From: Gemmatimonadota bacterium
GTDB lineage: Bacteria > Latescibacterota > UBA2968 > UBA8231
Reading direction: 5' to 3'
Assembly: GCA_038128265.1 (NCBI GenBank)
Contig: JAYPJE010000013.1
Location: 9,077-73,076, forward strand
DNA: 64,000 nucleotides
The notes under the pieces are model-generated. The model saw nothing but the letters and a program-made list of their open reading frames with translations. It was not told the origin of the DNA and ran no database searches. Below are positions 25,965 to 50,872 of this stretch, one piece after another. A program made the position numbers and the translations under genes. How positions within the stretch are numbered: the stretch's first letter is position 1; each line of letters begins with the position of its first letter.

Positions 25965-27629
25965 TTACGAACTGGGCGCGGCACTGACTCGCTTTAGGGC
26001 TTCTTCGTCAATTGTGACGGGATACTTGTCTCGCAGCGAACGCACATACTGGACGTAGCTGCGCCTGGCCTTATCTACTTTGACGTAGGCCGTTGAGCGG
26101 CGCTGCGACTCCTTGTTGTAGGGAGCTTTTTCCTGTTTGCGCTCGAGCACTTTGAATACGGAGTAACCCGCGCCCGTCTTGACCGGTCCTCCCACCTGGC
26201 CGATTTCCAAACTCTGTACAATTTCGGAAATCTCGGGAAAGAAAGCCTGGTTGTAGGCGTTGATGTCGAGGCGGCCGTTGTGGTGTGCTGCTTCTTCGCG
26301 CAGCGAGTACTGATCGTAGAGAGCCTGCGGATCTTCGCCCTCTTGCAGCAGGCGCTTCACGCGCTGTGCGAGCGTGTCGCTGGCCACCAGGATTTCGGCT
26401 GCCGTCGTCGTCGCTGGGGGGATGAACTTCTGCGGATTCGCATCGTAAAAGGCGCGTGCTTCATCCTCCGTGACGGCGATATACTGATCGACCTGGCGCT
26501 TGCGCAGCATGTTCAATAGGGCTGCCGGCTTGCGTTCGGCCAGATGCTCTGCTATGACGGGATCTTTGTCCAAGCCCATTTCGTACGCTTCCGACATGAA
26601 CAGGTGGGCTGGAATAAAAATTCGGTTGAGAATGGTCGTTACTTCGGCCGGTTTGGCGAAGTCGCGGGGATTTACGTGTGCTTCTTTGGCATCGTGAAGA
26701 AATTCGTCGAGCGTTATTTCTCCACCCGCGAAGCTCACCAGGGGCATCTGCCCTTCGTCGCCGGGCAGCACGAGCGGGTCGTCGTTGCCGGCATCACTCA
26801 GCTTGGCTAATAGCCCCATATTATCTTCCCGAATTTCCGGCTTGTACTTGTCGTTTATAAATGCCAGCAATTCGGTTATGCGCTCTGCGCGCTTGCGCGC
26901 GAAGACTTCTTCCTTTACGCGTTGGTACGTTGCGTCGAGGGAAACGGGCATTTCGTCAAAGACTTTGAATACGACAAAGTGAATTTTCTGTTCGTGCGGC
27001 ACAGGCGTCGGATCGGATATTTCCCCGACGGCCAGCGGAAAGACGCTCTCGGCGATTGCTGGAATGGTCTGATCGCGCAGCTTATAGCCGCCGCTGTCCC
27101 CTCCGCGCTCGGCCGTCTCGCGGTGGACGGAGTGCTCGGCGGCCAGCGCTTGGAAATCGCCTCCGGCTTCGAGCAGGGCAATGATTTGCTCGGCTTCCTC
27201 TTTTGTTTCGACCATGATGCCGCTAAAGCGCAGCGCGCGGTCGCGGTAGGTTGCTCGCTGATGCTCTTCGAGCTCTTCGTCGCTGACGGATATCTTTTCG
27301 ACAATTTCCTGTTGCTGGTAGAGTCCGAAGATCTTGCTCTTGACCTCTTTGGCTTCCTGTGCGCGAAACGCGGGATCGTTTTCCAGGTCGAGCGATCGCG
27401 CCTCGGCTAGGAGCACGGTCTTGTCGATTAGGCTCTCGAGTAGGTTGCGGTTGATATCCAGTGGAGAGCCGCCGGTTTTCATGCCATCGGGTATACTGGC
27501 CGTAAACGACGCGAACTCTTCCGCCGTAATCTGTTCGTCGCCTACAGTGACCAGCACGTTGGACTCTTCTTCGGGGGTGCTGCAGCCGCTCAACGCGGCA
27601 AAGATGAGGATGTATAATGCAATTTGCAT
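25965..27629 (-). CDS. PpiC/parvulin-type peptidyl-prolyl isomerase lipoprotein chaperone (PrsA/SurA-like, two tandem modules)
   Basis: MQIALYILIFAALSGC lipobox after an AGGAGG RBS. GGDFQALAAEHS..TAERGGDSG, LAVGEISDP, and a second module GEDPQALYDQYS..NGRL..LEIGQVGGPVKT..GYSVFKV. Confidence 0.88.
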   Translation of the reverse strand: MQIALYILIFAALSGCSTPEEESNVLVTVGDEQITAEEFASFTASIPDGMKTGGSPLDINRNLLESLIDKTVLLAEARSLDLENDPAFRAQEAKEVKSKIFGLYQQQEIVEKISVSDEELEEHQRATYRDRALRFSGIMVETKEEAEQIIALLEAGGDFQALAAEHSVHRETAERGGDSGGYKLRDQTIPAIAESVFPLAVGEISDPTPVPHEQKIHFVVFKVFDEMPVSLDATYQRVKEEVFARKRAERITELLAFINDKYKPEIREDNMGLLAKLSDAGNDDPLVLPGDEGQMPLVSFAGGEITLDEFLHDAKEAHVNPRDFAKPAEVTTILNRIFIPAHLFMSEAYEMGLDKDPVIAEHLAERKPAALLNMLRKRQVDQYIAVTEDEARAFYDANPQKFIPPATTTAAEILVASDTLAQRVKRLLQEGEDPQALYDQYSLREEAAHHNGRLDINAYNQAFFPEISEIVQSLEIGQVGGPVKTGAGYSVFKVLERKQEKAPYNKESQRRSTAYVKVDKARRSYVQYVRSLRDKYPVTIDEEALKRVSAAPSS

Positions 27630-28028
27630 GGGTGAAATCGCCTCCTGACCATGCGGGTTCCCTGCGAACAATGCGTAGGTAAGATACGAAATTCAGGGAT
27701 TTTGGTCAGTCTAATCGCGAATTTGTTGTGCGGGAGGGTTTGCCCAAATGACTTTGTTTGAGCAATGGATGGGCGAAATGAGGGAGTGTTGAGGTGGGAC
27801 CATCTCTATCGGCCACCGCCAAATCGGATGCGTAAAAAACGCTTGCTCTCCAACCTTGGGTGGGTTATTAATATACCGACATTGGCCACACCTGCATGTC
27901 GAAAGAGACATTGAAACGGTGAACTTTAAGGGCAATTCGTCGGTTGATAGGTTTTCTAAATACCTGTCCCAACGGCTTTTATCTACAATACTACCGATCT
28001 GATCGATCCATTGGCTAGGACGCATGCG

Positions 28029-30287
28029 ATGTCGCTGAAGGCGCGAAAATTGAGCAGGAGCTTCTCTCTGGTTTTGGTCCTACTCATCTGCGGGAGGGCG
28101 GCGGAGGTCGATGCTGAGGTCTTTGTGATAGGGGGACAGGGGCTCAGTTGGGAAGGTGGAGGCGACGGTATCGAGCCGACGGTTATCCGCGGTGCGCGCA
28201 AGGTGGAGCACACCAATGCTCCTGGTGGCGTCATTGACTTTCAGGTCGAGGGGCTGAGCAACTGGATTTTTCCCCAGCGCGCCGATACAACCCTCAATAT
28301 CGCGGTCGGCGCGGCTTCGGAGGATCGCGGCGGCGAAATCACCTCGCCTAACGCTCAGCGCATCCGCGCGGACTTGCCCAACATGATCGACAACGACGGT
28401 GCCACGGCGCTCGATTTGCGCGTGGCAGCCGGACAGTCGGCTCAGGTGCTGGGAATTATTATCGACCTCGATTTGGGTGCACGCTTCGGCATCGACCGCT
28501 TCAAATTTTTTCCGCGCAATGCCGATCCTGCTTTTCCCGCGCCGGCGTTTCCCTTCCAAAATGATTTCATGCGCGGGTTCGAGCTCTTTCTCAACGATGG
28601 CACAGATCAGACCCAGCTGGAAGGACGGCCCATCTACGAGACCATATTTCTCGAATCCCTCAACGAAAATGCCGTCGTAGACCTGCGGATCGAGCCACAG
28701 TACGTGCGCCATATTCGACTCAAGTCGCTGACGACGGCTGGTTTTGAAATTGCCGAGTTTCAGGTGTTTGGCACGGGGTTTGTGCCCGAGGCTAGCTACC
28801 TGTCAGACGTGCTCGACTTTGGCGACTTAGCCCTCTTGGGCAATCTGCGCTGGATTCAGGACAAGGAAGGTGATGCAGCGCTTTCCAAGGTGGAGGTGCG
28901 CACGCGCGTTGGTCGAGACATAGACCCGGTTGAGTACAATAAGATCCGCCCCGGCGAGCGCATTTTCCGCAGCGGTGGTGGCGCGACGTCGGGCAATCGC
29001 TCCGGCACCACCACATCGGGCGATGCCGTGCCCTGGAAATTTGCCTCTGACGTCGACGATGCGGAGCTAAAGGAACTGGTCGAGACGGTGCTTGACAACG
29101 ATCAGGTGGGCCTGCGCAATGCCATCGAGGCGTTTAATGAGCTGCCGCTCGATAAGCAGATACTGGTCACGTTGGAAGAAGACGAGTACAACAAGCTGAA
29201 AAACGAAGACAAGGGCGATATACGCGACGACCTAACCAACTGGAGCGGTTGGTCGCCCCCCTATGCGCCGAGCGCCGTGGTTGCGGTGGAAGACATCGAG
29301 AATCCGTCGATGGGCGTGCCGATTATCGCCGCTGACCCTCGCCGCTACTTCCAGTTCGCCGTCGACCTATTCAGCGAGGATTTTGCCGCTGCTACGGGCG
29401 TTGGTTCGCTCTCCTTTGAGGTTGTGACGCCCCCTTTTGCAGAGCGTATTATCGGCGAGATCTCGCCGCGCGAGGCGGCGGTCGGACAGCGAACGCGCTT
29501 CGTCTATGCGGTGCGCAACCAGTCGCGTCCCGGTCAGGACCGCGGCTTTGATCGCTTTCGCATCGATACGCCGCTCAGGGCTGAAGCCGTTGGGCAGATA
29601 TCGATCACGCGTCCCGGTGGCTCCACTACGTCGGCCGATTTTTCCGGTGCGGCGCTCGACGCGCTGCCGCTGACGCAGAACGGGATCAGCATTCTCGAGG
29701 TGAGCGATAACGCACTGGTCGTCGGTTTCCCGCTGATTGACGAGCACGGCACGGAGCTCAAAGTCGGCTTTGACTGTGCGGTGCTGCGCTTTGGGACTAC
29801 TTTTACCGGCCAGGCGCTCAACTTTGCCGCTAGCGAAACGCTGGGACAGAATGCGGTGGCGGGCAACGCGGCCGACCTGAGCGCCGATGGGTTAGCGGAT
29901 ACCGACTTGCAGCCGCTGGGAACGCCGCTTACGGGCAATTTGTCGGTAGTCGTGCCGATTGCGCGCGACCTGTTGGTAAACGTCGATGTCGTGCCGATGG
30001 CGTTTACCCCCAACGGAGACGGCATCAACGATGCCGCCGAAATTCAGTACGATATTACCAATATTGCGCGCCCAGCGCCGGTGGCAATACACATCTACGA
30101 CGTGTCCGGTCGCCCGGTGCGCGTGCTGTACGACGACTTAGATACGAGCGGCCGCTTTGCTCGGGCGTGGGACGGGCGCGACGATGCCGGTGCGATGGTG
30201 CCACCGGGCAACTATCTGGTTTCTGTATCGCTGAGTGCCGGCACCGGCAGCCAGCGACAGATTGGCGTCGTTGCCGTGGCCTATTGA
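28029..30287 (+). CDS. Exported discoidin-like protein with C-terminal FlgD-Ig/CHU_C-like domain (class A)
   Basis: Signal peptide, IDNDGAT..IDLDLG..VRHIRL..EIAEFQVFG, WSGWSPPY, C-terminal FTPNGDGIND..IYDVSGR..WDGRDDAG.MVPPGNY..VAVAY. Confidence 0.8.
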   Translation: MSLKARKLSRSFSLVLVLLICGRAAEVDAEVFVIGGQGLSWEGGGDGIEPTVIRGARKVEHTNAPGGVIDFQVEGLSNWIFPQRADTTLNIAVGAASEDRGGEITSPNAQRIRADLPNMIDNDGATALDLRVAAGQSAQVLGIIIDLDLGARFGIDRFKFFPRNADPAFPAPAFPFQNDFMRGFELFLNDGTDQTQLEGRPIYETIFLESLNENAVVDLRIEPQYVRHIRLKSLTTAGFEIAEFQVFGTGFVPEASYLSDVLDFGDLALLGNLRWIQDKEGDAALSKVEVRTRVGRDIDPVEYNKIRPGERIFRSGGGATSGNRSGTTTSGDAVPWKFASDVDDAELKELVETVLDNDQVGLRNAIEAFNELPLDKQILVTLEEDEYNKLKNEDKGDIRDDLTNWSGWSPPYAPSAVVAVEDIENPSMGVPIIAADPRRYFQFAVDLFSEDFAAATGVGSLSFEVVTPPFAERIIGEISPREAAVGQRTRFVYAVRNQSRPGQDRGFDRFRIDTPLRAEAVGQISITRPGGSTTSADFSGAALDALPLTQNGISILEVSDNALVVGFPLIDEHGTELKVGFDCAVLRFGTTFTGQALNFAASETLGQNAVAGNAADLSADGLADTDLQPLGTPLTGNLSVVVPIARDLLVNVDVVPMAFTPNGDGINDAAEIQYDITNIARPAPVAIHIYDVSGRPVRVLYDDLDTSGRFARAWDGRDDAGAMVPPGNYLVSVSLSAGTGSQRQIGVVAVAY

Positions 30288-30339
30288 CCACCGCGCAGAT
30301 TTAAATATCAGAACTCGACCGCAAAGGGAGGGATTGAGT

Positions 30340-33126
30340 TTGAAAGCCTACAGTAATTGGAGTTTGCTCTGTCTGGCATGCCTGCAGTTTTGGGCCGTGG
30401 CGGCGTCGGGTCAGGATTACGGCGATCGACTTGGCGTTCAGCGAGGGGGCAAAGTGTCCTTTGAGCCACAGGGCTCCGGGGTGATGTTTGGTGCGCTCGA
30501 TCCAGCCGTTAAAAAGTGGTATGTGCCACAGGAGTTGGCCACGGAGTACGGCTGGCGCCAGTGGGAATACTCCAACTATGCGCGCGACCCATACCAGCGC
30601 TACGTCAGCACCACGCTGGAGGGCGATTACTTCTACGATTTCTACGGCAATTTTATTGGCCGCGGTTGGCTAATCTACGACTGGCGTCAGGATCAGCCCC
30701 AGCAGTTGGGCAGCAGTATTTTCCAAAATACGCGGTTTTCGTCGTGGTTTAACTCGGTGACTATTGGCGGCGAGTCCAAGGGCCAGTATCACTACGCCAT
30801 TACCGTTGGTGATCGCATTCGCACTACGCTGACGCCAATGACTTTTTCCAAGCCCACGTTTAATGGCGTGCAGATTGACTTTGCCTCCGATAAATACGCG
30901 GCGACGATCTTGGCTTCGCGCGCTAGTGAGCCGATCCGCGGAGCGACAAACCAGCCGATTACGCGCACCAATGCCACCAGCCTGTTTGGCGGTCGTGCGA
31001 CATTCCAGCTAGGCGACTTTGTCGAATTGGGCGCGACGTTGGTCAATGCGCGCAACTCCAATACCAGCCTCGATCTGTTCAGCGGCGATATGATTGCCGG
31101 CACTCTGACCTCAGGTCAGAGCAGCACGCCGCTGACGGCGATTGCCATCGTTCTCAGCGACGACAGCCCGGCCGATGGAGAGGGCGGTGCGGCGCTGTTC
31201 TCACACGACGTGCGCATCACCAGCAAGAATTTCGAGACGGGCCGAGAGGAAGTCTTCACGCTGCAACAGGTGGTGCGAGCCGGCGCAGAGTGGCCCATTA
31301 TTTTCGGTGGGTTTCAGCGCTCGGGTTTCTTAGCCGCCGACGGTCCAGAGCGCATTGTGCTCAACTACGATTTCGACGATCCGTCCTATATCGGTCCCGA
31401 TCCGACTTCGATTATCAACGTCGAATTCGACTACGTGATGGCCAACGACTTCAAGGTTGAGATGTGGTCGAGCCAGCAGACGGGGCAGCGGCCCATGCCG
31501 TCGGCGCCGCTGAGTCCCGAGTCGATTGACGCTTCTGAACCAGCTTTTATCAACGTGAAGCGGGCTGACGGCAATGTGCAGGACATATCCAATCTGCAGC
31601 GCGTGCGCTTTGAGTACGGTCTGCCAACGGGCAATCTGGTCGGCGGATTCTCCATTGAGGGAACGGACCTGCTGGGCTTTGACTTCTACGGCGAGTGGGA
31701 TCGCAACAAGAAGTATTTCCAGTATCCCAACGCCGCCACCTTCACCGCTGGCAAGCAGCACGAAATTTCCTCGCTGGATGCCGATGCGTGGCATTTCAAC
31801 CTATCCAAGCAGGCCTATCCCTACTACCTGTTCGGCGAGGCCTACTCGTTTGATCGCGCCTATTCGACGACGGCTTACCTAGCCGACAACAACGGCGATG
31901 TGCAGTACGACAATACGCAGCGCTATCTCTACGAGTTTGTCGAAGACAACGATGACTTAGATCGCTTCCCGGACTGGACGCGCTTCGGTCAGCTTGACGA
32001 TCGACTGATTTTTCCCGGCTGGGACCAGAACAACGACTTTATCAACGACTTTAATCAGAACGACAACGCGACCGTAACCAATATCTTGCCCGACTACGAG
32101 GAGCCCTTTCTGCGCTTTGAAGTGGATCGTCCGGAATTCCTCTTTGGCATTGATCACAACAACAACAACTGGATTGATCGCTTTGAAGACGACGATTTGC
32201 CCGACTATCCCTACAAGGCAGATCGCCGCGGCTACAACTTCTACGTCGGAGCCTTTGTCACGCCTCACATTAAGCTGAGCGTGGGGCGCACCGATGAGGA
32301 CATGATTTCGGTCAATCGCTCCAATCGGACCAATTTCCTGCTCTTTACCTTTGACCGCGACTATCCGGGGTTGGGTCGACTGCAGATCTTTGAGTCGCTA
32401 AAGCGCAGCGAGGATACGATTCCCGACGATCGTCGCGAACCGACCCCCTTTGTTGAGGCCACCGGTGTGCAGCCGCTGGTCCGCGATATACTGCCGGCGC
32501 AGGATACCTGGATTAATTCTTCTTTTATTGGCTTTGACTACGAGGGCATCGAAAACCTGCGAGTAGCCAACAAGTTTAAGTGGGAGGTCTTTAACCAGGC
32601 TAGCAGCGGCATGCGGGATATCGACAATCGGCCACTGCGCGACAACTCGAGCTTTTTGGGAGCAATTAACAAGGTCGACTACCTGTATGAACTCGGACGC
32701 CTGAGTCTGCGCCCGCGCTTTAAAAGCGAATACCTGCGTATGACTCCTTTCTTGCAGAGCGAAGACAAGCGCCGGCAGTGGACCGGCACCGGCATTCTAC
32801 TCGCCCAAATGCCGGCTCTGCAAAACACGCTGCTGCAGGCGGGTGTCGAACTGCTGTGGCTGCGCGACCTGGTCGCCGACGAAGAGGAAATGGTCGACCT
32901 AGGCATCACGCGGGAAACGGGTGACGTAAACTCGCGCACCGTTGCGGTCCAGCTGTCAAATATCTCCAACTATCAGGGGTATGTGCTAACGACTCAGATC
33001 GGTCTGCGCTTCTCGCGGATACTCACTGAGGGCGTGACCGAAAATGCCAACGGCGGCTTCGATATTGGCAACGAAGCAAGCAGCGTCACGACCAGCTTCT
33101 TGACCGTATACGCGGGGCTACAGTAA
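30340..33126 (+). CDS. Large exported hypothetical protein, putative outer-membrane beta-barrel (paralogue 1)
   Basis: TTG start after GGAGG, signal peptide ending ASG|Q, many alternating amphipathic strands, a D/N-rich block, C-terminus SFLTVYAGLQ. Strongly similar to 33126..36071. Confidence 0.7.
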   Translation: MKAYSNWSLLCLACLQFWAVAASGQDYGDRLGVQRGGKVSFEPQGSGVMFGALDPAVKKWYVPQELATEYGWRQWEYSNYARDPYQRYVSTTLEGDYFYDFYGNFIGRGWLIYDWRQDQPQQLGSSIFQNTRFSSWFNSVTIGGESKGQYHYAITVGDRIRTTLTPMTFSKPTFNGVQIDFASDKYAATILASRASEPIRGATNQPITRTNATSLFGGRATFQLGDFVELGATLVNARNSNTSLDLFSGDMIAGTLTSGQSSTPLTAIAIVLSDDSPADGEGGAALFSHDVRITSKNFETGREEVFTLQQVVRAGAEWPIIFGGFQRSGFLAADGPERIVLNYDFDDPSYIGPDPTSIINVEFDYVMANDFKVEMWSSQQTGQRPMPSAPLSPESIDASEPAFINVKRADGNVQDISNLQRVRFEYGLPTGNLVGGFSIEGTDLLGFDFYGEWDRNKKYFQYPNAATFTAGKQHEISSLDADAWHFNLSKQAYPYYLFGEAYSFDRAYSTTAYLADNNGDVQYDNTQRYLYEFVEDNDDLDRFPDWTRFGQLDDRLIFPGWDQNNDFINDFNQNDNATVTNILPDYEEPFLRFEVDRPEFLFGIDHNNNNWIDRFEDDDLPDYPYKADRRGYNFYVGAFVTPHIKLSVGRTDEDMISVNRSNRTNFLLFTFDRDYPGLGRLQIFESLKRSEDTIPDDRREPTPFVEATGVQPLVRDILPAQDTWINSSFIGFDYEGIENLRVANKFKWEVFNQASSGMRDIDNRPLRDNSSFLGAINKVDYLYELGRLSLRPRFKSEYLRMTPFLQSEDKRRQWTGTGILLAQMPALQNTLLQAGVELLWLRDLVADEEEMVDLGITRETGDVNSRTVAVQLSNISNYQGYVLTTQIGLRFSRILTEGVTENANGGFDIGNEASSVTTSFLTVYAGLQ

Positions 33127-36071: not shown

Positions 36072-36140
36072 GATTGTCTGATGCGCCGGTGCGGTGCCGG
36101 TTGCTGACCCTTCCCCAAAGGCTTTTACGGGTATTTGACG

Positions 36141-41046: not shown

Positions 41047-41084
41047 CCGATTGTGTAAACGGGTATTCCCGGATGGAGAACGCT

Positions 41085-43004
41085 ATGAATCGCTTCGGAA
41101 TGTTGGGCTGTGCACTCTTTGCGTTGGCGTTGGGATGGAGTGCGGATGCGGGTGCGCTCACGATCTTTCGCATCGGCGGTGAAAATCTACCGCGGCCTGA
41201 GGTTGGCGGTGACTTCGAGTTTGTTCAGCTCAGCTGGGGCGAGGCAGAAGAGGCGCGTCACGGCAGCTTGGAGTTGCTAGAAGTCAGTCCGGACTACATC
41301 AAACCGCGCGAACTCGATCCCAGCGTGAATCTCACACCCGCGCTCGAAAGCAACGGGGGGCAGATCTTGGCTTTGGGTTGGACGGGGTGGGAGCGCCGAC
41401 TCGAGGAGGATCTGGTCTTTTTTGACGAGGATCCCAGTACCGCCTACTTAGGCGATGGGCACTTTGCCGCCCATGCGCCGCCGCAGAAGCACTTGATCTT
41501 TGATTTCGGCGGACGCTTTCTAATTCAGCGCATTCGCTTTTTTCCGCGCGAAAAGCACGAGCACGATCGCTTCATACAAAAGTTTGTCATTGGCATTAGC
41601 GACGGGGACCCGCTCAAGGACGGTATGCGTGACCGCGACTTTGGCACCCGCGGTCACTTCGTCAACTTTGACGTCGCGCACGAAATAACCGAGAACACAG
41701 TGTCGGATATTACGCTGGAAATGCCGCCGGTGCCCATCAAGCAGATTCTGTTTCAGGGTTTTGAAAACACGCGTGGCATCTGGGAAGTCGCGGAGTTTCA
41801 GATTTTTGGTATCGGCTATGCTCCATTTGCCCACTACGTGTCCAACGTCATCGACCTCGGAAAACCGGCTAGCTTAGGTCAGTTGACCTGGCTGGGGCGC
41901 CAGGATCAGGATGCAAAAATCGATATAGCCATGCGCGCCGGTGATGATGACGATCCCAACAACTACTGGCGCTTCACATTCAGAGGCGATGAGCGCACCC
42001 GTTTCGCCACCAGCGGTCGGCCGCTCAAGCTGGCTGACTACAAGAAACTTGAATCGGGTGAGAAGGCGGGCATTACCCACGATACGGAGAATTGGGATTT
42101 TTGGTCGACGCCCTACGACTTCGAAGCAGACGGTGGCAATTTGGTCGGCAACAAACCGCATCAATTTGTGCAGTTTAAAGTCGACTTTCTCTCTGGGTTA
42201 GAGGCTAGCGGACAGCTCGACTACCTGCAGTTTTCGGTGGCGATACCGCCCATTGCCAGCGAAGCGCTGGCCGAAATCGAGCCAAACCGAGCGCCAGCGG
42301 GCGAGGTGACGTCGTTTACATACAAGATCAAGCCGAACCTCGATAGCGGCGATTTGGGATTCGATAGCATATCAATTGACACGCCAGCCCGTGCCGTTGG
42401 CGTCGATGCCGTGCGCATTGGCGGCGTCGAAGAGGAATTTGAACTCGTCGATTTAGATGATACTGGCTTTACGGTTCGCGTTCCGCCGATCAGCATCCAG
42501 CAGACGGAAGAGCTGATCGAAGTCGACTTTCGCGCCGAGGTCTTTAAGTTTGGCACCGTGTTTTCAGGTAGGGTGTTTAACAGCGAAATGGTCGATGAGG
42601 TATATCAAACGCTGACGCCGGGCAATGCCGACGACCTGTTTGACGGCGACGTGCTGCGCGTGGACTTAGCGGGACTTGAATCAAATACGATCCAAGCGAT
42701 GCACCTGTCTTCGCCGGTTTTGACTCCGAATAACGACGGCGTCAACGATCGCGTCACGATCGAGTACGATTTGCTCAACTTGGCGGGGTCTGTGCCGGCG
42801 ACCGTCGATATTTACTCGCTTTCGGGGCAGCGCCTCAGCTCGGTGCCGGTGGCCAGCGTTGCCAGCGGTCGATTTTCAACCCAATGGGACGGCCGCGATG
42901 AAGGGGGCAAGATCTTGCCCCCGGGTATGTACATTCTGCGTTTGGAAGTAGCTGCTGATCAGGGATCGGATGCCGTCGAACGCATCGTTTCGCTGGCCTA
43001 TTGA
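41085..43004 (+). CDS. Exported discoidin-like protein with FlgD-Ig/CHU_C-like C-terminal domain (class B, copy 2)
   Basis: ATG 41085 after GGAG. Collinear paralogue of 39133 (identical PNNYWRFTFRGDER and HDTENWDFWSTPY). Ends VSLAY. Confidence 0.82.
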   Translation: MNRFGMLGCALFALALGWSADAGALTIFRIGGENLPRPEVGGDFEFVQLSWGEAEEARHGSLELLEVSPDYIKPRELDPSVNLTPALESNGGQILALGWTGWERRLEEDLVFFDEDPSTAYLGDGHFAAHAPPQKHLIFDFGGRFLIQRIRFFPREKHEHDRFIQKFVIGISDGDPLKDGMRDRDFGTRGHFVNFDVAHEITENTVSDITLEMPPVPIKQILFQGFENTRGIWEVAEFQIFGIGYAPFAHYVSNVIDLGKPASLGQLTWLGRQDQDAKIDIAMRAGDDDDPNNYWRFTFRGDERTRFATSGRPLKLADYKKLESGEKAGITHDTENWDFWSTPYDFEADGGNLVGNKPHQFVQFKVDFLSGLEASGQLDYLQFSVAIPPIASEALAEIEPNRAPAGEVTSFTYKIKPNLDSGDLGFDSISIDTPARAVGVDAVRIGGVEEEFELVDLDDTGFTVRVPPISIQQTEELIEVDFRAEVFKFGTVFSGRVFNSEMVDEVYQTLTPGNADDLFDGDVLRVDLAGLESNTIQAMHLSSPVLTPNNDGVNDRVTIEYDLLNLAGSVPATVDIYSLSGQRLSSVPVASVASGRFSTQWDGRDEGGKILPPGMYILRLEVAADQGSDAVERIVSLAY

Positions 43005-43010: not shown

Positions 43011-45611
43011 ATGAGACGGTCGCCCCGCAACGTTATACCGTGGCTGTGCTGCATTGCGCTGCTATCGATGAGTGCAGCCGAGGGGCAAGGCCATCGCATT
43101 GCGGCCAATCAGGTCGTTGTAGAGGGCAGGCATTGGAATAACTGGACCTTTCCCGCCGGCACGCTGGACATATCCAATCGGGGCGAGGTGATGCCCCGCG
43201 TTCTGCACAAAAATATCAACGCCTCGTTTGATATCCTCGATTATTTGCGCCTCCATCCGCCGCCGGCACTCGGCAGCAAAGCGCCCGAAGACATCCAATT
43301 GATCGATGCAATACAGGCGGGGTCCAATCGCGAAGGCGTAGTGCATATTCTCGACGGTGATATGTCGACCTATTGGGAGCCCGACCTGCTGCAGCCAGAC
43401 GTCGACCTCGAGTCGCAGTGGTGGTTCACTATTGATCTCGGGCGCTTTGTCTTTATTGAAAAACTGGTGCTGAAATTTGTCGACGAGGAATTGGGCGATC
43501 CGTTCCTGCTGTTTGACGTTCTCGTCTCCAACGGTCTGAATCCAGTCCGCGTTCCGGGCTCAAAATCTCCTGAGTATAAGACCGTCTTACGCAACCTACA
43601 GCCGAATAAGAGCCAACGCGTATTTGAGATTGATTTCAGCAAGGTGCCCGAAGCGCAGAGCGAAGGGGTGCGCTTTGTGCAGGTAGTCGTCAACGGCAGC
43701 GACTTGCAGCAGGGCCGTGAGGTCGATCGCGAGGTCTACGACGCGCTTGATGCGGATAGTCGGGGGGCGGTCCAGTACAACAAGAAAATGGCTGACGGGC
43801 GCGAGGTAGTAATTAAACAGAGCGTTTACGAGCAGCTCGAAGGGGAGCGACAGGGTTCCATACGCTACTTCATGCGCGAGCGTCCCCGCTTGGCGGAGCT
43901 CGAAGTATGGGCCACGGGCGATGAAATTGTCGGCGGTACGGTCGAACGCGGTGGCTTTATCACATCGACTCAGCAGATCAATACGGCGACCGTCATCGAC
44001 GGCGATATCCAGAGCTTTGGCACGGTGACGACCACCATCGCGGAGATTACCGATCCCAATGAATTGAATTTGGATATGTTTTTTGACCTGGGTTCGTTCT
44101 ATTGGATCGACACGCACCGTATCGTCTACAACCCGGGCAATGTGCACGCGCGCAGTTTCTTTGATTACCAACTAGACTTTTCCGACGGATCGCGTGCACC
44201 GGATGGCGAGCTGAGCTGGTTTACTGCGCTCTTCCGCCGGCAGGAGGCTACGCTCAAGGCCGTTATTGAAGGCAATCGCTTTGCACCGGTAAAAGCCCGT
44301 TTTTTTCGCCTGCAGGCCAAGGCGCGCAATATGCGGGGCAATGCGCTGGTACCCGTCGCGGAAATGCAGCTTTACGGCGAGGGATTTCAGCCGCGCGTCG
44401 AGTTGGAGTCGGATCTGATCCGCCTTGGCGGGAGCCGCAACCTGCTGTCGATCCGCTGGGATGCCGATACGCCACCGGGCACGAGCGTGCAGATTCAGAC
44501 GCGCACCGGTAATGAACTTGGCGAGGTGCTGCACTACTTCAAGAAAGACGGCACGGAGGTTACGGAGTCGCAGTATGGCAAGCTGCTATCGCTATTCAAG
44601 GGAGAAGTTGTTCCCGAGGAAGTGCCGGGCAACGATTGGAGCGATTGGAGCGAGCCGTATACGCTCGCGTCGGGTAGCCCGATTACCTCGCCGTCGCCGC
44701 GCGAATATCTCAAGGTGCGGGCGACGCTGGTCTCTGACGATCCAGCCGCCGCCGCCGCGCTGCGCTCTATCCGCCTCGATTTCGTCGATCCGGTAGCGCA
44801 GGGCTTGGTGGGTGAGGTCGTTCCGTTTCAGGTCGATTCGCTGGGCGTAGAGCAGCCCTTCTCGCTGTATATCCGCCCCGACTTTGTGCGCAGCGATAGC
44901 GGCTTTGACGAACTACTGCTGGTGGCGCCGTCGGATATGGCACTCGACTTTGTTGGTTTTTACGCGGGCAAAGAGGATGATTTCCTAGGTGATGGGCGCG
45001 ATATAAACGGCCTAGCGGTGGCCGATGTAGAATTGGTGACTAGCGGAGGAGACAGCCTGCAGGTGGCTTTCCCCCCGATTACCCCGGGAGACGATGTCGA
45101 TGTGTTGCGCTTGGATTTCCGCACCGCCCTTTTCTCGACGGGAGCGGTCTTGCGACCCGCGCTGCAGCAGCGTGGCAGTGCCAACAGCGCATGGCAGCGC
45201 GTCGATTCGGGTAATGCCATCGCCCTGGGTCAGGGCAATACGACCACGTTGGTAGGCGCTGTCGGTAGCAATCAGCTGATTCGCGACGTGTCGGTGAACC
45301 CCAGGGTCTTTTCTCCGAACGGCGATGGGATCAACGACGAGACGGCATTTGAATTTACCGTTGTTCGCGTGGGCGATAGCAGCCCGGCTGAGGTGATTGT
45401 CTACGATCTGAGCGGTCGTCAGGTGCGGCGCTTGGTCGAGCAGCGCTTGGTGAGCACGGGCGCGCGTGCGCTGCACTGGGATGGTCGCAGCGATGCGGGC
45501 GATATGGTAATGCCCGGCGTGTACTACGCCCGTCTACGCGTCGCCACAGAAACCGCCGGTGCGGGAATTGACAATGCCGAGGCTCTGCGGCCCATTGTCG
45601 TCGTTTACTGA
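43011..45611 (+). CDS. Exported protein with two discoidin-like domains and FlgD-Ig/CHU_C-like C-terminal domain (class C, copy 1)
   Basis: Signal AEG|Q, LDGDMSTYW..WWFTIDLG..RFVQV..LAELEVW, second domain IDGD..FFDLG..ARFFR..AEMQLYG, FSPNGDGIND..WDGR..VVVY. Confidence 0.82.
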   Translation: MRRSPRNVIPWLCCIALLSMSAAEGQGHRIAANQVVVEGRHWNNWTFPAGTLDISNRGEVMPRVLHKNINASFDILDYLRLHPPPALGSKAPEDIQLIDAIQAGSNREGVVHILDGDMSTYWEPDLLQPDVDLESQWWFTIDLGRFVFIEKLVLKFVDEELGDPFLLFDVLVSNGLNPVRVPGSKSPEYKTVLRNLQPNKSQRVFEIDFSKVPEAQSEGVRFVQVVVNGSDLQQGREVDREVYDALDADSRGAVQYNKKMADGREVVIKQSVYEQLEGERQGSIRYFMRERPRLAELEVWATGDEIVGGTVERGGFITSTQQINTATVIDGDIQSFGTVTTTIAEITDPNELNLDMFFDLGSFYWIDTHRIVYNPGNVHARSFFDYQLDFSDGSRAPDGELSWFTALFRRQEATLKAVIEGNRFAPVKARFFRLQAKARNMRGNALVPVAEMQLYGEGFQPRVELESDLIRLGGSRNLLSIRWDADTPPGTSVQIQTRTGNELGEVLHYFKKDGTEVTESQYGKLLSLFKGEVVPEEVPGNDWSDWSEPYTLASGSPITSPSPREYLKVRATLVSDDPAAAAALRSIRLDFVDPVAQGLVGEVVPFQVDSLGVEQPFSLYIRPDFVRSDSGFDELLLVAPSDMALDFVGFYAGKEDDFLGDGRDINGLAVADVELVTSGGDSLQVAFPPITPGDDVDVLRLDFRTALFSTGAVLRPALQQRGSANSAWQRVDSGNAIALGQGNTTTLVGAVGSNQLIRDVSVNPRVFSPNGDGINDETAFEFTVVRVGDSSPAEVIVYDLSGRQVRRLVEQRLVSTGARALHWDGRSDAGDMVMPGVYYARLRVATETAGAGIDNAEALRPIVVVY

Positions 45612-45646
45612 TTGGTCAGGTTAATAGAGGACCGGAGTTAATTCTT

Positions 45647-48250
45647 ATGTCATTGAGCGCTCTTTATTCAAACAGCAACCGCTTGATACCGGCGTTGTGT
45701 ATGGCCATATGGGCGATGGGTTCCGCCGATTCGGCGCGGGCTCAGGGGTACCGGTTGAGTGCGAGTCAGGTTATTGTTGAGACCCAGCGCCACTGGGAAA
45801 ACTGGGTATTTGCCCAGGGCACGCTGCAAATTGATGGAGGACAGGTGCAGCCGTCGGCCATGCGGCGCAATACCAACGCCGTATTTGATATCGTCGATTT
45901 TCTGCGGCTGAATACCCCGTCTGAAATCAAGAAAGACGCCGAAGACATCGAGCTGATTGATGCCGTTAAAGCGGGTTCGAATCGCGCCGGTGTGGTCAAT
46001 ATTATGGACGGTGATATGTCCACCTACTGGCAGCCCGATCGCGCTGAAGAAGGGAGCGACCTAGCGACGCAATGGTGGTTTGTCATCGATTTGGGCCGCT
46101 TTGTCTTTGCCAAGAAGCTTGTGCTAAAGTTCGTCGACGAAGAACTGGGCGACCCCTTCCTGCTCTTCGATGTATTGGTTTCCGATGGACTGGCACCGCC
46201 GCGCGTTCCGGGTTCAAAAGTGCCGCGCTACCAAACGGTGCTCCGGACGCTGCAAGAGAACAAAGACCAGCGCGTATTTGAAATTGACTTAGATGGGCTG
46301 AGTGACGAAGCCGAGAGCGAGGGCATTCGATATGTGCAAGTCGTCGTAAACGGCACGGATGCGGGCCGCGGACGGGAAGTCACCAAGGAAGCATACGATG
46401 GATTGCTTGCGGCCGACCGAGGTGATATCGAATACAATAAAAAGTTGATTAACGGGGGCGAAGTGCCGGTTCGGCAGGATGTTTTTGAACAGCTAGAGCT
46501 CGAGCGCCAAGGCGCCGTGCGCTACTTTCGTCAGGAGCGCCCGCGGTTGGCCGAGCTCGAAGTTTGGGGTTTGGGCGACGAAATTCTCAGCGGAACCGTT
46601 TCGCGCGGCGGCTTTATTTTTGCAACCGAGCCCAACGTGGCGCTCAGTTCATTTGTCGACGGCGACCGCGGCACGATCTCCCAGATGGTTTGGGACGCGC
46701 AGCCCGGCGCTACGCAGATCTTTGATCGCGAGCTCTTTTTCGACCTCGGTTCGTTTTATTGGATCGACACACACCGCATGGCCTACGGCGGCCTATTTCG
46801 CCGCTTTGGCGACTATCAACTACAGTTCTCCGACGGATCGCTCGCCCCGGATGGGACGTTGCAGTGGTGGACGTCTTTCGACCGTTCGCAGGCCGGGCGC
46901 GTGCGCGAAAACTTTGAAGGAAACGATTTTGATCCGATTAAAGCGCGTTTCTTTCGCATGTTTTGGAAGATAAAAGAGCGCGGTAGCAATCGCGTTGAAC
47001 TGGCAGAGATTCAGCTCTACGGCCAAGGCGTGCAGCCGCGCGTCGAATTGGAATCGGATTTGATCCGCCTGGGGGGCAGCCGCAATCTCCTGTCCATAGA
47101 GTGGGATGCCGATACGCCGCCGGGCACGAGCGTGCAGATTCAAACGCGCACGGGTAACGAACTGGGCGAAGTGCTCCACTACTTTAAAAAAGATGGCACC
47201 GAAGTGACCGAGGCGCAGTATGGAAAGCTGCTGTCGCTGTTTAGGGGTGATATTGTGCCGGAGGAAGTGCCGGGCAACGACTGGAGCGATTGGAGTGAGC
47301 CGTACGCGCTCTCGTCGGGCAGTCCAATTACGTCGCCGTCGCCGCGCGAATACCTTAAAGTGCGGGCAACGCTGGTGTCCGACGATCCAAACGTCGCGGC
47401 CACGCTGCGCTCTATTCGACTCAACTTTGTCGATCCGGTAGCACAGGGCCTAGTGGGTGAGTTGGTGCCGTTTCAGGTCGATTCGCTGGGCGTAGAACGC
47501 CCGTTTTCTCTGTATATCCGACCGGACTTTGTGCGCAACGACAGCGGCTTTGATGAACTGCTACTCGTCGCACCTTCCGACATGAGTCTGGACTTTACGG
47601 GGCTCTTTGCTGGAGCAGAGGCCGACTTTGTAGCGGGGAGCGACCTTGAAGCGATGGTTCCCGAAGGAGTGGACGTAGCCGCTAGTGGCGGCGACAGCCT
47701 GCGCGTCGCCTTTGCCCCTATTGGCCCCAACGACAATATTGACCTCTTGCGGCTCGACTTTCGCACGGCGCTTTTCTCGACGGGGGCCGTATTGAAACCT
47801 CTGCTTCAGCAGCGTGGAGCAACAAACGCTTGGCAGCGAGTGGACGCGGGTAACGCCGTCTCACTGGGAGAGGGCAATACGACGACGCTGGTCGGCGCCG
47901 TCGGTCGCAAAGAACTTATTCGCCATGCCGAAGTAGTGCCGCGCGTATTTTCACCTAATGGCGACGGCGTCAACGACGAAGCGGCCTTCGAGTTTACCGT
48001 TATTCGGGTGAGTGATAGCAGCCCAGCCGAAGTGACGGTATACGATCTGAGCGGCCGTCGGGTGCGCCATCTGGTCGAGCAGCGAGCCGTTAGCACCGGT
48101 CCGCGCTCCCTGCGTTGGGATGGTCGCGATGACGCGGGTCAACTCGTGGCGCCGGGCGTGTACTATGCGCGGTTACGTGTTGCCACGGAAACGTCGGGCG
48201 CCGGCATTGAAAGCGCCGAAGCACTGCGCGCCGTATCGGTGGCATATTAA
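45647..48250 (+). CDS. Class C paralogue, copy 2
   Basis: Collinear with 43011. Near-identical ESDLIRLGGSRNLLSI..GTSVQIQTRTGNELGE..SPSPREYLKVRATLVSDDP block. Ends VSVAY. Confidence 0.82.
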   Translation: MSLSALYSNSNRLIPALCMAIWAMGSADSARAQGYRLSASQVIVETQRHWENWVFAQGTLQIDGGQVQPSAMRRNTNAVFDIVDFLRLNTPSEIKKDAEDIELIDAVKAGSNRAGVVNIMDGDMSTYWQPDRAEEGSDLATQWWFVIDLGRFVFAKKLVLKFVDEELGDPFLLFDVLVSDGLAPPRVPGSKVPRYQTVLRTLQENKDQRVFEIDLDGLSDEAESEGIRYVQVVVNGTDAGRGREVTKEAYDGLLAADRGDIEYNKKLINGGEVPVRQDVFEQLELERQGAVRYFRQERPRLAELEVWGLGDEILSGTVSRGGFIFATEPNVALSSFVDGDRGTISQMVWDAQPGATQIFDRELFFDLGSFYWIDTHRMAYGGLFRRFGDYQLQFSDGSLAPDGTLQWWTSFDRSQAGRVRENFEGNDFDPIKARFFRMFWKIKERGSNRVELAEIQLYGQGVQPRVELESDLIRLGGSRNLLSIEWDADTPPGTSVQIQTRTGNELGEVLHYFKKDGTEVTEAQYGKLLSLFRGDIVPEEVPGNDWSDWSEPYALSSGSPITSPSPREYLKVRATLVSDDPNVAATLRSIRLNFVDPVAQGLVGELVPFQVDSLGVERPFSLYIRPDFVRNDSGFDELLLVAPSDMSLDFTGLFAGAEADFVAGSDLEAMVPEGVDVAASGGDSLRVAFAPIGPNDNIDLLRLDFRTALFSTGAVLKPLLQQRGATNAWQRVDAGNAVSLGEGNTTTLVGAVGRKELIRHAEVVPRVFSPNGDGVNDEAAFEFTVIRVSDSSPAEVTVYDLSGRRVRHLVEQRAVSTGPRSLRWDGRDDAGQLVAPGVYYARLRVATETSGAGIESAEALRAVSVAY

Positions 48251-48280
48251 ACGGTTTGGATACCCATGGGAGAAACGCAG

Positions 48281-50872
48281 ATGATCGGTAGGTGCCGGTG
48301 GCTGTGCGGTGTGCTGGTGGCCGTTTTCGCCTCGATGCTATTGGTTGGTGAACTGCGGGCACAGGGCCACAGGGTTAGTGCCAATCAGGTTGTTATCAAC
48401 GCGCAGAATCACTGGGAAAACTGGGTGTTTCCGCAGGGCACGCTCAGTGTCGTCGATGGCACCGTGCGGCCAAAGAGCATGCAGCGGAATACCAATGCGG
48501 TTGTCGATATCGTCGACTTTCTGCGTCTCAATACGCCCGATCACATCAAGAAAGACCCCGAAGATATCGGTCTGGTCGACGCAGTCAAAGCCGGCTCAAA
48601 TCCCGCCGATGCATTTAAGGCGATCGACGGCGATCCCACCACCTATTGGGAGCCAGCGCCGGTGCCCGCAGGCATTGACCTGCCTGCGCAGTGGTGGTAC
48701 AACCTCGACTTGGGCCGCTTTGTCTTCGCAAAGAAAATCGTCCTAAAATTTGTCGATGAAGACCTGGGCGACCCATTCTTGCTCTTTGACGTGCTTGTTT
48801 CCGACGGACTCAAACCCAAGCTCGCCCCCCTGTCGACGACGCCAAACTATTCTACGGTCATGCGTCTGTTACAGGAAAACAAGAGCCAGCGCGTCTTTGA
48901 AATCGACCTGCAAAATGCCGACAAAGAGACGCGCAGTCAGGGGCTGCGGTTTATTCAGATCGTGGTCAATGGAACCGACGGTGCGCGCGGCCGGCAGGTC
49001 ACAGAGGCCGAATACGACGAACTGCCGGCCGCCGAGCGCGGTGCAGTTGAATACTACAAATATCTGCTCGACGGCGGTCAGCTACAGGTAGACCAGGATG
49101 TCTACGAAAAGCTGAGCCCGGAAAAGCGAGCCGATATCCGCCACTTTCGTCGCGAGCGACCGCGCCTGGCCGAAATTGAGGTGTGGGGTGAAGGAGACGA
49201 GATTCTGAGTGGCACCGTTTCGCGCGGCGGCTTTATCTCCACAACGGAGCCGGGCGTGGCGTTGGGCCCCTTTATCGATGGCCGGCGAGAGAGCTCTTCC
49301 ATCGTCGTTTGGGGCGTGGGTGGTTGGACCGGGGCTACCACCGACATCAACAATCGCGAACTGTTTTTCGACCTAGGTACATTCTACTGGGTCGATACGC
49401 ATCTATTGGCCTACGGCGGCCGCAGCTTTGGGGACTACCGCATCGAAGTGTCGGACGGCAGCCTGGCCCCAGACGGCAGTTTGGAGTGGAATCGCGTGCT
49501 GAATCGCGATCAGGGCGGCGTGTACCAGCGCCCGTTTGAAGGCAACCGATTTGATCCCGTACAGGCGCGCTTTTTTCGCATGCAGTGGACGGTTGCCGCC
49601 TTTGGTGCCAGCGCTATACTGGCCGAAGTGCAGCTCTACGGCGAGGGATTTTTGCCGCGTTTGTCGCTTGAATCCGATTTGATTCGCCTCGGGGGAAGTC
49701 GAAACCTGCTCTCCATCGAATGGGACGCCGATACGCCGCCGGGGACGAGTGTGCAGATTCAGACGCGCACGGGTAATGAATTGGGCGAAATCTTGCACTA
49801 CTTCAAAAAGGACGGCACCGAAGTAACCGAGGCGCAATATGGCAAGCTGCTGTCGCTGTTCAAGGGAGATATTATTCCCGAAGAAGTGCCGGGCAACGAT
49901 TGGAGTGATTGGAGCGAACCCTATACTATTCCTTCCGGTAGTGTGATTACTTCGCCGTCGCCGCGCGAATATCTCAAGGTGCGCGCGACCTTGGTTTCGG
50001 ACGATCCGTCGGCTGCGGCTGCGCTGCGCTCTATTCGACTCAACTTCGTCGATCCGGTAGCGCAGGGACTGGTTGGAGAGGTCGTGCCCTTTCAGGTCGA
50101 TTCGCTGGGCATCGAGCGCCCTTTCTCCCTGTACATCCGACCGGATTTTTTGCGCAATGACAGCGGTTTTGACCAACTGCTTCTGGTTGCTCCTTCCGAT
50201 ATGGAATTGGCGTTTGCCGGCCTCTATGCCGGTTCGGAAGACGACTTTATTGCCGGGGGGGATATGGAACGCATGCGCGTGGAGGATGCGCTGGTGGCTG
50301 AAACCAATGCGGACAGTCTGCAGCTTCGCTTTCCGCTTGTTGGGCCCAATGGCGACGCGGAGCTACTGCGTCTCGATTTTCGCACGGCGCTGTTTTCTAC
50401 GGGTGCGGTGCTGCGGGCTTCACTGCAAAATGGATCCGGCGGATCGGCTGCCTGGCAGCGCGTAGACGCGGGTAATGCCGTTGCGCTGGGCGCGGGTAAT
50501 ACGACGACGCTGGTCGGCGCGGTCGGTCGCAACGAGCTACTCTATGACGTGCGGGTTGAGCCGCGTGCATTCTCACCCAACGGCGACGGGATTAATGACG
50601 ACACGGTCTTCGAGTTTACCGTTGTGCGCGTGGGCGATAGCAGTCCGGCAGAAGTAATTATCTACGATCTGAGCGGTCGTTCGGTGCGGCGCTTAGTTGA
50701 GCAGCGCGCGGTTAGCACGGGACCTCGATCTCTGCGCTGGGACGGGCGCGATGACGCCGGTCACGTCGTCATGCCGGGTATCTATTACGCGCGCCTGCGC
50801 GTTGCGACGGAAACGGCCGGTGCCGATATAGACAATGCCGAGGTGCTGCGTACGATATCGGTGGCCTACTGA
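48281..50872 (+). CDS. Class C paralogue, copy 3
   Basis: ATG 48281 after GGGAGA, signal LRA|Q, collinear with 43011 and 45647. Ends ISVAY. Confidence 0.82.
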   Translation: MIGRCRWLCGVLVAVFASMLLVGELRAQGHRVSANQVVINAQNHWENWVFPQGTLSVVDGTVRPKSMQRNTNAVVDIVDFLRLNTPDHIKKDPEDIGLVDAVKAGSNPADAFKAIDGDPTTYWEPAPVPAGIDLPAQWWYNLDLGRFVFAKKIVLKFVDEDLGDPFLLFDVLVSDGLKPKLAPLSTTPNYSTVMRLLQENKSQRVFEIDLQNADKETRSQGLRFIQIVVNGTDGARGRQVTEAEYDELPAAERGAVEYYKYLLDGGQLQVDQDVYEKLSPEKRADIRHFRRERPRLAEIEVWGEGDEILSGTVSRGGFISTTEPGVALGPFIDGRRESSSIVVWGVGGWTGATTDINNRELFFDLGTFYWVDTHLLAYGGRSFGDYRIEVSDGSLAPDGSLEWNRVLNRDQGGVYQRPFEGNRFDPVQARFFRMQWTVAAFGASAILAEVQLYGEGFLPRLSLESDLIRLGGSRNLLSIEWDADTPPGTSVQIQTRTGNELGEILHYFKKDGTEVTEAQYGKLLSLFKGDIIPEEVPGNDWSDWSEPYTIPSGSVITSPSPREYLKVRATLVSDDPSAAAALRSIRLNFVDPVAQGLVGEVVPFQVDSLGIERPFSLYIRPDFLRNDSGFDQLLLVAPSDMELAFAGLYAGSEDDFIAGGDMERMRVEDALVAETNADSLQLRFPLVGPNGDAELLRLDFRTALFSTGAVLRASLQNGSGGSAAWQRVDAGNAVALGAGNTTTLVGAVGRNELLYDVRVEPRAFSPNGDGINDDTVFEFTVVRVGDSSPAEVIIYDLSGRSVRRLVEQRAVSTGPRSLRWDGRDDAGHVVMPGIYYARLRVATETAGADIDNAEVLRTISVAY

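Follow-up and report, generated by a model that had tools for sequence, protein, structure and literature searches.

In the Bacteroidota, type B cargo of type IX secretion systems (T9SS) is often encoded beside a PorP/SprF-like barrel, which it binds and which it needs for secretion or anchoring, as set out in two publications (PMC9143113; PMC12618676). In such pairs (SprB-SprF, Fjoh_3952-Fjoh_3951 and PG1035-PorP-PorE) the gene for a tailed surface protein lies directly upstream of the barrel gene, and we find a like arrangement in an eleven-gene cassette at positions 25965-50872 of a 64,000-nucleotide stretch of DNA (hereafter the window, meaning this stretch at its full length; contig JAYPJE010000013.1, positions 9,077 to 73,076, of assembly GCA_038128265.1). 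The assembly is deposited under the name Gemmatimonadota bacterium; the closest relatives of the window's proteins are in records named Candidatus Latescibacterota. At the core of the cassette stand two predicted giant outer-membrane barrels, BB1 and BB2, and six predicted exported proteins of three classes (A; B1 and B2; C1 to C3), accompanied by a peptidyl-prolyl isomerase (PPIase), a membrane protein with tetratricopeptide repeats (TPRs) and a CBM9-like protein. The cassette probably builds a cell-surface capture complex, and our preferred reading, held with slightly less than even confidence, is that this complex is linked to the T9SS, with the giant barrels acting as dedicated partners of lectin-like cargo. 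A search of the full-text literature (the phylum name combined with secretion, outer-membrane and domain terms; supplements not included) returned no publication on this cassette, and the literature on T9SS in the Fibrobacterota–Chlorobiota–Bacteroidota (FCB) group consisted of Bacteroidota work only.

BB1 (963 amino acids; positions 30235..33126, plus strand) and BB2 (981 amino acids; 33126..36071, plus strand) are 40% identical over their whole length, in line with the original prediction, made from the letters of the window, that these two proteins of ~960-980 amino acids are paralogues. Neither matches any Pfam or NCBIfam family at E-values up to 0.01, and when PDB sequences were searched with a profile of 64 barrel-family members the best result was a chance match (E 0.34). 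DUF6029, the nearest named protein-atlas cluster to BB2, was rejected as a relative at a score of 0.89, under the trust level. An AlphaFold2 model of BB2, built on the family alignment, has a mean predicted local distance difference test score (pLDDT) of 72 and contains about 30 long antiparallel strands. Its low-confidence parts are the first ~135 residues and residues ~520-660; the N-terminal ~110 amino acids are highly conserved in sequence although modelled at low confidence, and residues ~520-660 form an acidic insert, rich in Asp and Asn, in which an EF-hand-like loop lies at residue 639. The leading Foldseek rows for the model are outer-membrane barrels, with E-values down to 5e-8, as are all 50 of the rows listed after re-alignment with VIA (Z 10.8-13.4). 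These matches come from many unrelated families (MtrB, SlpA, LptD, SprA, SusC, FimD, OprC, AlgE, porins and BamA), none of them prominent: Z reaches 13.4 for OprC and 13.1 for SlpA, which gives the best long structural alignment (427 residues aligned). Because Foldseek and VIA return outer-membrane barrels only, BB is, as far as a predicted structure can tell, a large outer-membrane barrel of an undescribed family. BB2 also carries a Sec signal peptide, and model and signal peptide together agree with the general outer-membrane beta-barrel fold that the original prediction had proposed to look for with AlphaFold and Foldseek. The family comprises at least 895 relatives at 90% clustering, all of them unnamed, and 958 clusters at 50% identity among 1.84 billion representatives; its members are 880-1050 amino acids long and are frequently encoded as tandem pairs.

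The putative cargo consists of A (758 amino acids; 28011..30287), B1 (637; 39133..41046), B2 (40926..43004), C1 (866; 43011..45611), C2 (867; 45647..48250) and C3 (868; 48266..50872), all encoded on the plus strand and with N-terminal signal peptides readable in their sequences. The B2 frame spans 692 amino acids; its signal peptide starts at residue 54, and a likely start near 41085 would give a protein of about 640 amino acids. All six proteins align on one scaffold, after which a common C-terminal domain ends each of them, and the invariant residues of the scaffold (G254-x-G256-x-x-P259; W411, W414-S415-x-P417-Y418; P443; G512-F513-D514) reproduce the motifs from which a shared scaffold had first been proposed. 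The proposed division into classes holds as well, with A at 758, the B proteins at 637 and about 640, and the C proteins at 866-868 amino acids, the last with an extra N-terminal discoidin-like domain. These assignments draw on CHU_C and FlgD_ig matches together with the alignment (A) or a structural model (B1), on Pfam matches and the alignment (C1 and C3), and on CHU_C, F5_F8_type_C_2 and the alignment (C2); B1 and B2 are 60% identical. The AlphaFold2 model of B1 (pLDDT 86.7) is a chain of beta-sandwiches, made up of a small N-terminal domain, a CBM32/discoidin-like domain, Ig/FN3-like domains and the tail, and no enzyme fold appears in it. Its CBM32 match is to CBM32-5 of CpGH89 (4a44; TMt 0.62, root-mean-square deviation [rmsd] 5.2 over 159 columns). 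In Pfam, discoidin matches in C1-C3 lie at 20.5-27.3 bits, all under the cut-offs of 27.8 and 28.2 (the highest being F5_F8_type_C_2 in C2, at 27.3 against 27.8), and A, B1 and B2 have no discoidin match.

The common C-terminal domain resembles the tails of T9SS cargo. It matches FlgD_ig at 24-39 bits (A 33.3, B1 38.6) and CHU_C (PF13585, cut-off 27) from profile position 3-6 onward in all six proteins; A (29.2) and C2 (29.5) pass the CHU_C cut-off, B1 stands at 26.9 and the others at 26.0, 26.0 and 25.1. The type B model TIGR04131 (cut-off 35) gives 21.1 bits for A, 18.5 for B1 and 17.9 for C2, with B2, C1 and C3 not listed, while B1 alone among the six reaches the type A model TIGR04183 (23.5 bits, cut-off 23); the domain also weakly matches the tail of PorU itself. 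Its position is that of a sorting domain: it occupies the last residues in all six window proteins, and 100 of the 102 tail-bearing frames of the source genome (an assembly of 4.29 Mb in 102 contigs, 84% complete) end within 15 amino acids of the C-terminus.

Sixty of these 102 frames are scaffold frames, which is every scaffold frame in the genome. An NGDG-type motif is typical of type B tails, and an NPF-type start of type A tails. The pattern N[GN]DG.ND occurs in 45 of the 60 scaffold tails (mean length about 105 amino acids) and in 0 of the 42 other tails (mean about 85). The four other tails that were sampled all match the type A model TIGR04183, at 33-44 bits and from its first positions, whereas their matches to CHU_C do not begin before profile position 19. 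In a quick tree built from the 102 tails, the label scaffold or other changes once, against a minimum of 24 changes in 200 label shuffles. By their sequences, then, the scaffold tails appear as a distinct, type-B-like class, set apart from the type A tails of the same genome.

Elsewhere in the source genome we find candidates for three components of the T9SS itself: a 2163-amino-acid frame that matches SprA_N over its cut-off (55.5 bits), a PorU (657 bits, cut-off 420) and, adjoining PorU, a PorV-like gene (172 bits, cut-off 250). A single PorP-like frame of 291 amino acids lies on contig C37 (52.7 bits; TIGR03519 cut-off 90.55). The models of GldL, GldM and GldN have no match and GldK a generic (FGE-type) one only, in an 84%-complete genome and with Bacteroidota-trained models whose controls had no match anywhere. 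Since the genome is incomplete and the models are trained on Bacteroidota, we do not read this silence as absence; the genome may have a T9SS whose motor and ring go unrecognised, or the assembly may have gaps. The original prediction had recognised no SusC, SusD, TonB or T9SS core gene; as regards T9SS core genes this stands for the locus and fails for the genome as a whole, and the genome-wide check for SprA, PorV and GldKLMN that it suggested returned the first two, the second as a PorV-like gene, and left GldL, GldM and GldN silent.

We note in passing two further observations on PorU- and PorV-like proteins. A second PorU-like protein, of about 1830-1900 amino acids (C29:29781-31928 in the source genome), aligns with no more of the PorU model than its first 737 positions, and is the sole PorU-like match in two families of the phylum, f2 and f3. 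Small PorV-like barrel frames at C14:49919-50527 (47 bits) and C51:8453-9052 (31 bits) adjoin genes with type-A-style tails (C14:50833-54384 and C51:6711-8390), and may represent a second kind of cargo-barrel pairing.

The cassette is not unique to the window. The source genome encodes 24 barrel frames in about 13 loci, of which this is one, and a scaffold gene lies directly upstream on the same strand of 16 of the 24 barrels, at gaps of -130 to +109 bases; of the remaining eight barrels, some stand second or third in a tandem, and others are close to a contig end or at about 1 kb from a scaffold gene. To place the locus among its relatives, we scanned one genome per species, which gave at least 652 relatives of BB2, and kept the best 80 loci. 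These were picked by likeness to BB2, with several per assembly and several arrangements recurring, so that kin among them are not independent. An A-like gene lies directly upstream of the first, BB1-like barrel in 66 of the 80, BB1-like and BB2-like genes are adjacent in 55, and a PPIase gene stands between both barrels in 20. Among the 59 loci with full flanks, A and BB1-like genes are present in all 59, a B or C gene in 58, a PPIase in 55, a CBM9-like gene in 48 and the membrane/TPR gene in 15. The linkage between barrel and scaffold genes is more than chance, as judged from the 16 upstream pairs and the gene order recurring in the 80 related loci, and what the window holds is one copy of a Latescibacterota cassette that exists in many copies, namely its two-barrel variant, whose gene order is the best conserved.

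Across 151 Latescibacterota genomes, the same set in each search, barrels (E up to 1e-20) occur in 93 and the scaffold core (E up to 1e-10) in 81; 79 genomes have both families, 56 neither, 14 the barrel only and 2 the scaffold only, the 14 barrel-only genomes all having weak matches and belonging to families f7, f10 and f14. Both are found in all 63 genomes of the window's own family, and neither in families f2 (0/30) and f3 (0/19). Related genomes are not independent, so this co-distribution amounts to a few gains or losses and not to 151 trials. PorU passes its cut-off in 93 of the 151 genomes; families f2 and f3, which lack barrels and scaffold, have sub-cut-off PorU-like proteins only, and family f8 has PorU and no barrels. 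The co-occurrence and synteny that the original prediction had called for are thus present, in the 59 full loci and the 151 genomes. Of three records searched that bear other NCBI labels, the two named Gemmatimonas phototrophica (L092) and Planctomycetota (L090) coincide in contig coordinates with genomes from the family and genus of the window itself (G101 and G137); the NCBI names on those assemblies misstate the range of the barrel-bearing family, and the distribution given here is therefore limited to Latescibacterota.

The order of cargo upstream of barrel, the private class of tails and the T9SS genes of the genome follow the same logic as type B cargo with PorP/SprF, and we therefore read the cassette as a T9SS-linked complex. 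Under this reading A, B1, B2 and C1-C3 would be lectin-like chains of beta-sandwiches (CBM32/discoidin plus Ig-like) that are exported by Sec and then pass through the type IX translocon (SprA) by virtue of their type-B-like C-terminal domain. BB1 and BB2 would be their dedicated outer-membrane partners, filling the role that the small PorP/SprF has for type B cargo, namely to accept the cargo and retain it at the surface. The outcome would be a fixed complex of barrel(s), A, B and C that binds an external ligand, most likely a glycan; the parvulin lipoprotein may serve as the cassette's own periplasmic chaperone, for barrels or cargo, and the CBM9-like protein as an additional binding protein, placed on the periplasmic or the inner-leaflet side. 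The steps that we infer are export by the T9SS, docking to the barrels and the nature of the ligand. The original prediction had instead pictured a distinct envelope machine whose large paralogues export or anchor the A, B and C proteins. With SprA_N, PorU and a PorV-like gene in the genome and T9SS-type tails on the cargo, an accessory of the T9SS is the better description, and since six proteins carry such a tail, the type IX translocon offers a simpler account of their export than the barrels do. The cassette matches no described complex in Pfam, NCBIfam, PDB sequences or the literature searched, as had been expected.

Several points weigh against the T9SS-linked complex. The contact between barrel and cargo is presumed; a complex prediction for BB1 (residues 70-963) with the tail of A (residues 653-758), each entered as an alignment, reached 0.00 and 0.00 where the mark was 0.32, with controls not run, and gives no answer either way. 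BB1 and BB2 have no detectable sequence likeness to PorP/SprF (no TIGR03519 or Pfam match) and, against the roughly 300 amino acids of that family, are three times its size, which a mere anchor would not need. The tails lie under the type B cut-off (17.9-21.1 against 35 for TIGR04131), and only two of six pass CHU_C; the discoidin matches, too, are under their cut-offs. A working T9SS is presumed from three components, with the Gld models silent or generic. A scaffold gene directly upstream is lacking for eight of the 24 barrels, about 44 of the 60 scaffold genes lie elsewhere than directly upstream of a barrel, and the related loci, several per assembly, include kin that are not independent. 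Finally, the scaffold tails would equally be expected to form one clade if whole paralogues had descended together, so that a separate route for these tails is not proved.

It is conceivable, if on balance unlikely, that the cassette is a locus for capturing and importing nutrients, equivalent in this phylum to the SusC/SusD loci, in which the barrels would be uptake channels fed by the A, B and C proteins and the CBM9-like protein, and the N-terminal ~110 residues and the acidic calcium-type insert would gate the lumen. The expansion of the family, the size of the barrel and sugar-importer genes nearby point in that direction: 24 barrel frames against 5 TonB-dependent receptor frames in the source genome, with first-look candidate counts of up to about 150 per genome in relatives, is a transporter-like number; no anchor would need a barrel as large as one of about 30 strands; and CUT1-type ATP-binding cassette (ABC) importer genes flank the loci on contigs C16 and C18. 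The CBM32-like and CBM9-like folds of the partners would suit glycan uptake, genes of the enolase superfamily and for GFO/IDH/MocA, PhyH, BNR_2, aldo-keto reductase and sulfatase proteins lie near several loci, and an ExbB-ExbD-ExbD series follows the divergent barrel locus on contig C7. What points the other way is that a plug, TonB elements and hydrolases are lacking, as the TonB-dependent receptor and plug models (PF00593, PF07715) match neither BB1 nor BB2 (PF00593 finds 5 other frames in the genome, none at any BB locus), and no classical glycoside hydrolase or lyase family occurs among the 65 neighbouring frames scanned, one BNR_2 protein apart. Moreover, the conserved core contains neither a regulator nor an inner-membrane transporter, and the regions that would form the gate are modelled at low confidence.

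Two further explanations are less likely still. That the cassette is a non-nutritional coat or adhesion apparatus, such as an S-layer-like array or one for attachment between cells or to particles, perhaps glycosylated by the GT-C/TPR enzymes, strikes us as quite improbable: the best whole-length structural match is indeed SlpA, a Deinococcus barrel that anchors the S-layer (Foldseek ranks 2, 3 and 7), the matches of B1 include the biofilm scaffold RbmA and an S-layer protein from an archaeon, genes of the PMT_2-type GT-C/TPR kind are repeatedly found next to cassettes, and FG-GAP/ASPIC and LRR proteins are frequent neighbours, but the S-layer matches have low TM scores and are of a generic sandwich or barrel kind, Pfam finds no SLH domain in BB, and dozens of diverged copies per genome suit varied ligands better than one coat. 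Very improbable, in our judgment, is a self-contained secretion device in which BB1 and BB2 are translocation pores for the adjacent A, B and C proteins, independently of SprA. The tight cargo-then-barrel order with overlapping stops and starts, the dedicated chaperone, the usher and two-partner-secretion barrels (FimD, PapC, FhaC) among the structural matches and the silent GldL, GldM and GldN models would all fit such a device; against it, the genome has SprA, PorU and a PorV-like gene, no lineage was found to have barrels without a PorU that passes its cut-off, the tails are Ig-like domains of T9SS type, Pfam finds no POTRA or usher plug domain, and the structural matches in question are generic to all large barrels.

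The eleven genes are all open frames at the places that the original prediction had given, with the divergent PPIase and the same-strand run that it described: the PPIase gene on the minus strand and, on the plus strand, A, BB1, BB2, the membrane/TPR protein, the CBM9-like protein, B1, B2 and C1-C3. Counted from the first start codon, the frames of A and BB1 overlap by 53 bases; the true start of BB1 is probably some 35-55 codons inside its frame, where a hydrophobic signal-like stretch ends AVAASGQ. The stop of BB1 and the start of BB2 have TAATG in common, and the remaining plus-strand junctions are gaps of 6 to 201 bases. A scan for promoters and terminators stayed at the level of shuffled sequence (9 vs 8.6 and 27 vs 21.6), with no promoter above chance in the 339-base divergent intergenic region between the PPIase gene and A (27672..28010, bounded by the neighbouring genes and without a strand of its own). 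DNA near-identical to the window is present in estuary, marine, freshwater and biofilm metagenomes; none of the 23 runs listed as holding it is an RNA dataset.

The PPIase (568 amino acids; 25965..27671, minus strand) has a signal peptide that ends in an LSGC lipobox, two PpiC-type (parvulin) domains and a weak SurA-like N-terminal region. Rotamase_2 (76.3 bits), Rotamase (65.9) and Rotamase_3 (54) each match in two stretches and over their cut-offs, SurA_N_3 (24.4) and SurA_N_2 (20.8) under theirs, and no NCBIfam equivalog model is reached; the protein is thus a parvulin-type PPIase chaperone of the SurA/PrsA/PpiD kind. The CBM9-like protein (302 amino acids; 38082..38990, plus strand) has a signal peptide and no secretion tail. 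It has no direct Pfam match even at E 10, and its assignment comes from likeness: CBM9_1 occurs in 13% and 37% of the members of its look-alike clusters in the protein atlas, and two paralogues at other cassettes of the same genome match CBM9_1 (PF06452, cut-off 23.4) at 29.9 and 27.2 bits. The multi-pass membrane protein (581 amino acids; 36135..37880, plus strand) has at least six strongly hydrophobic segments and C-terminal TPRs, and is present only in this cassette type. None of its 346 homologues has a family on the membrane part, and those that are named are called only 'TPR protein'; its likeness to the neighbouring GT-C/TPR protein is confined to the TPRs. The membrane part contains several conserved His residues, and its family also occurs in records named Bryobacterales, Blastocatellia, Planctomycetota and Pirellulales.

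The cassette is flanked by genes for TPR, pentapeptide-repeat, FG-GAP/ASPIC-UnbV, aldo-keto reductase and PMT_2-type GT-C/TPR proteins, among them the TPR, FG-GAP and GT-C flanks noted at first sight. Pairs of FG-GAP/ASPIC-UnbV (CRTAC1-like) and TPR proteins lie beside cassettes genome-wide (window 13435-19241, 21000-22649 and 51011-52738; loci L097, L098, L103 and L105). Elsewhere in the window, at 7070-13426, 56608-58548 and 59591-61507, are three proteins with DUF6785 and DUF6784, one of which forms the C-terminal part of a 2118-amino-acid protein with PA, MacB-like periplasmic and FtsX permease domains, and an SBP_bac_5 solute-binding gene follows at 61717-63510; the DUF6785+DUF6784 proteins may be inner-membrane transport partners of the surface cassettes. 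In a Pfam scan of 65 of the 97 unlabelled frames around the genome's cassettes (those left out being mostly short), the recurrent neighbours were parvulin PPIases, CBM9-like proteins, FG-GAP/ASPIC plus TPR pairs, GT-C/TPR proteins and LRR proteins, with CUT1-type ABC importers and sugar-acid-type enzymes near some cassettes. LRR proteins of 430-621 amino acids lie between scaffold and barrel genes in loci L101, L102 and L106 (contigs C18 and C40). In locus L096 (contig C7:56000-75999; 14259-19165), a divergent two-barrel locus is followed by a 1095-amino-acid TPR/YfiO-like protein, ExbB, ExbD and ExbD, which suggests an energised variant of the barrel system.

What the cassette means for the biology of the phylum depends on the part that the barrels play. 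Latescibacterota are uncultured and widespread in sediments and waters, and about 24 barrel and 60 scaffold genes in a 4.3-Mb, 84%-complete genome represent a large investment in one unexplained surface system, built on a barrel family for which sequence searches find no relative in Pfam, NCBIfam or the PDB. Should the barrels be partners of a type-B-like tail, type IX secretion would have had outer-membrane partners specific to their cargo that are older and more varied than PorP/SprF. If the barrels import, the cassette would be a nutrient-uptake locus of a new kind, one that genome-based predictions of the phylum's role in carbon cycling would have to take into account. A bolder combination, which we consider rather unlikely, is that plug-less or calcium-loop-gated giant barrels, capped by T9SS-delivered lectins with a private tail class, replace the SusC/SusD logic in Latescibacterota, each cassette being tuned to a different polymer; such an uptake machine would be a third independent design for capturing and importing glycans across the outer membrane, and would give the type-B-like T9SS route its first assigned role outside the Bacteroidota.

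Set beside described systems, the cassette shares traits with several. SlpA, the 30-strand barrel of Deinococcus radiodurans (PDB 8ae1, 8agd, 7zgx), has a strand number similar to that of the BB2 model; the identity to BB2 is 10% at an rmsd of 7.6 Å, and BB has neither the SLH domain nor the coiled-coil stalk. The translocon of SprA (Sov), PorV and PPI (PDB 8gl6, 8gl8) likewise combines a very large barrel, a peptidyl-prolyl isomerase and substrates with C-terminal sorting domains, and SprA is a Foldseek match of BB2 at E 3e-5; however, the genome has its own 2163-amino-acid SprA_N protein, and BB is less than half that size, occurs in 24 copies and shows generic barrel likeness only. The SusC/SusD utilisomes of Bacteroidota resemble the cassette in their many copies per genome, in the union of a barrel of roughly 1000 amino acids with surface proteins of carbohydrate-binding type and, at some cassette copies, in the sugar importer and sugar-acid catabolic genes nearby. 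Unlike them, the cassette has no TonB-dependent receptor or plug domain and no SusD-like TPR lipoprotein, its core lacks glycoside hydrolases and hybrid two-component or extracytoplasmic function (ECF) regulators, and its partners bear a T9SS-type tail for delivery to the surface and are not lipoproteins; structural matches of BB2 to SusC and other TonB-dependent transporters are no better than those to unrelated barrels. There remain the pairs of type B cargo and PorP/SprF with which we began, where the likeness extends to a second tail class (type A) in the same genome and to the presence of SprA, PorU and a PorV-like gene. The cassette differs from them in its tails, which score under the type B cut-off, in its host, which belongs to the Latescibacterota and not the Bacteroidota, and in the GldL, GldM and GldN models, which find no match. 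It differs also in its barrel, which at 880-1050 amino acids and about 30 predicted strands shows no sequence likeness to PorP/SprF (about 290 positions in TIGR03519), is often encoded in tandem, and is accompanied by three classes of cargo, a parvulin lipoprotein and a CBM9-like protein.

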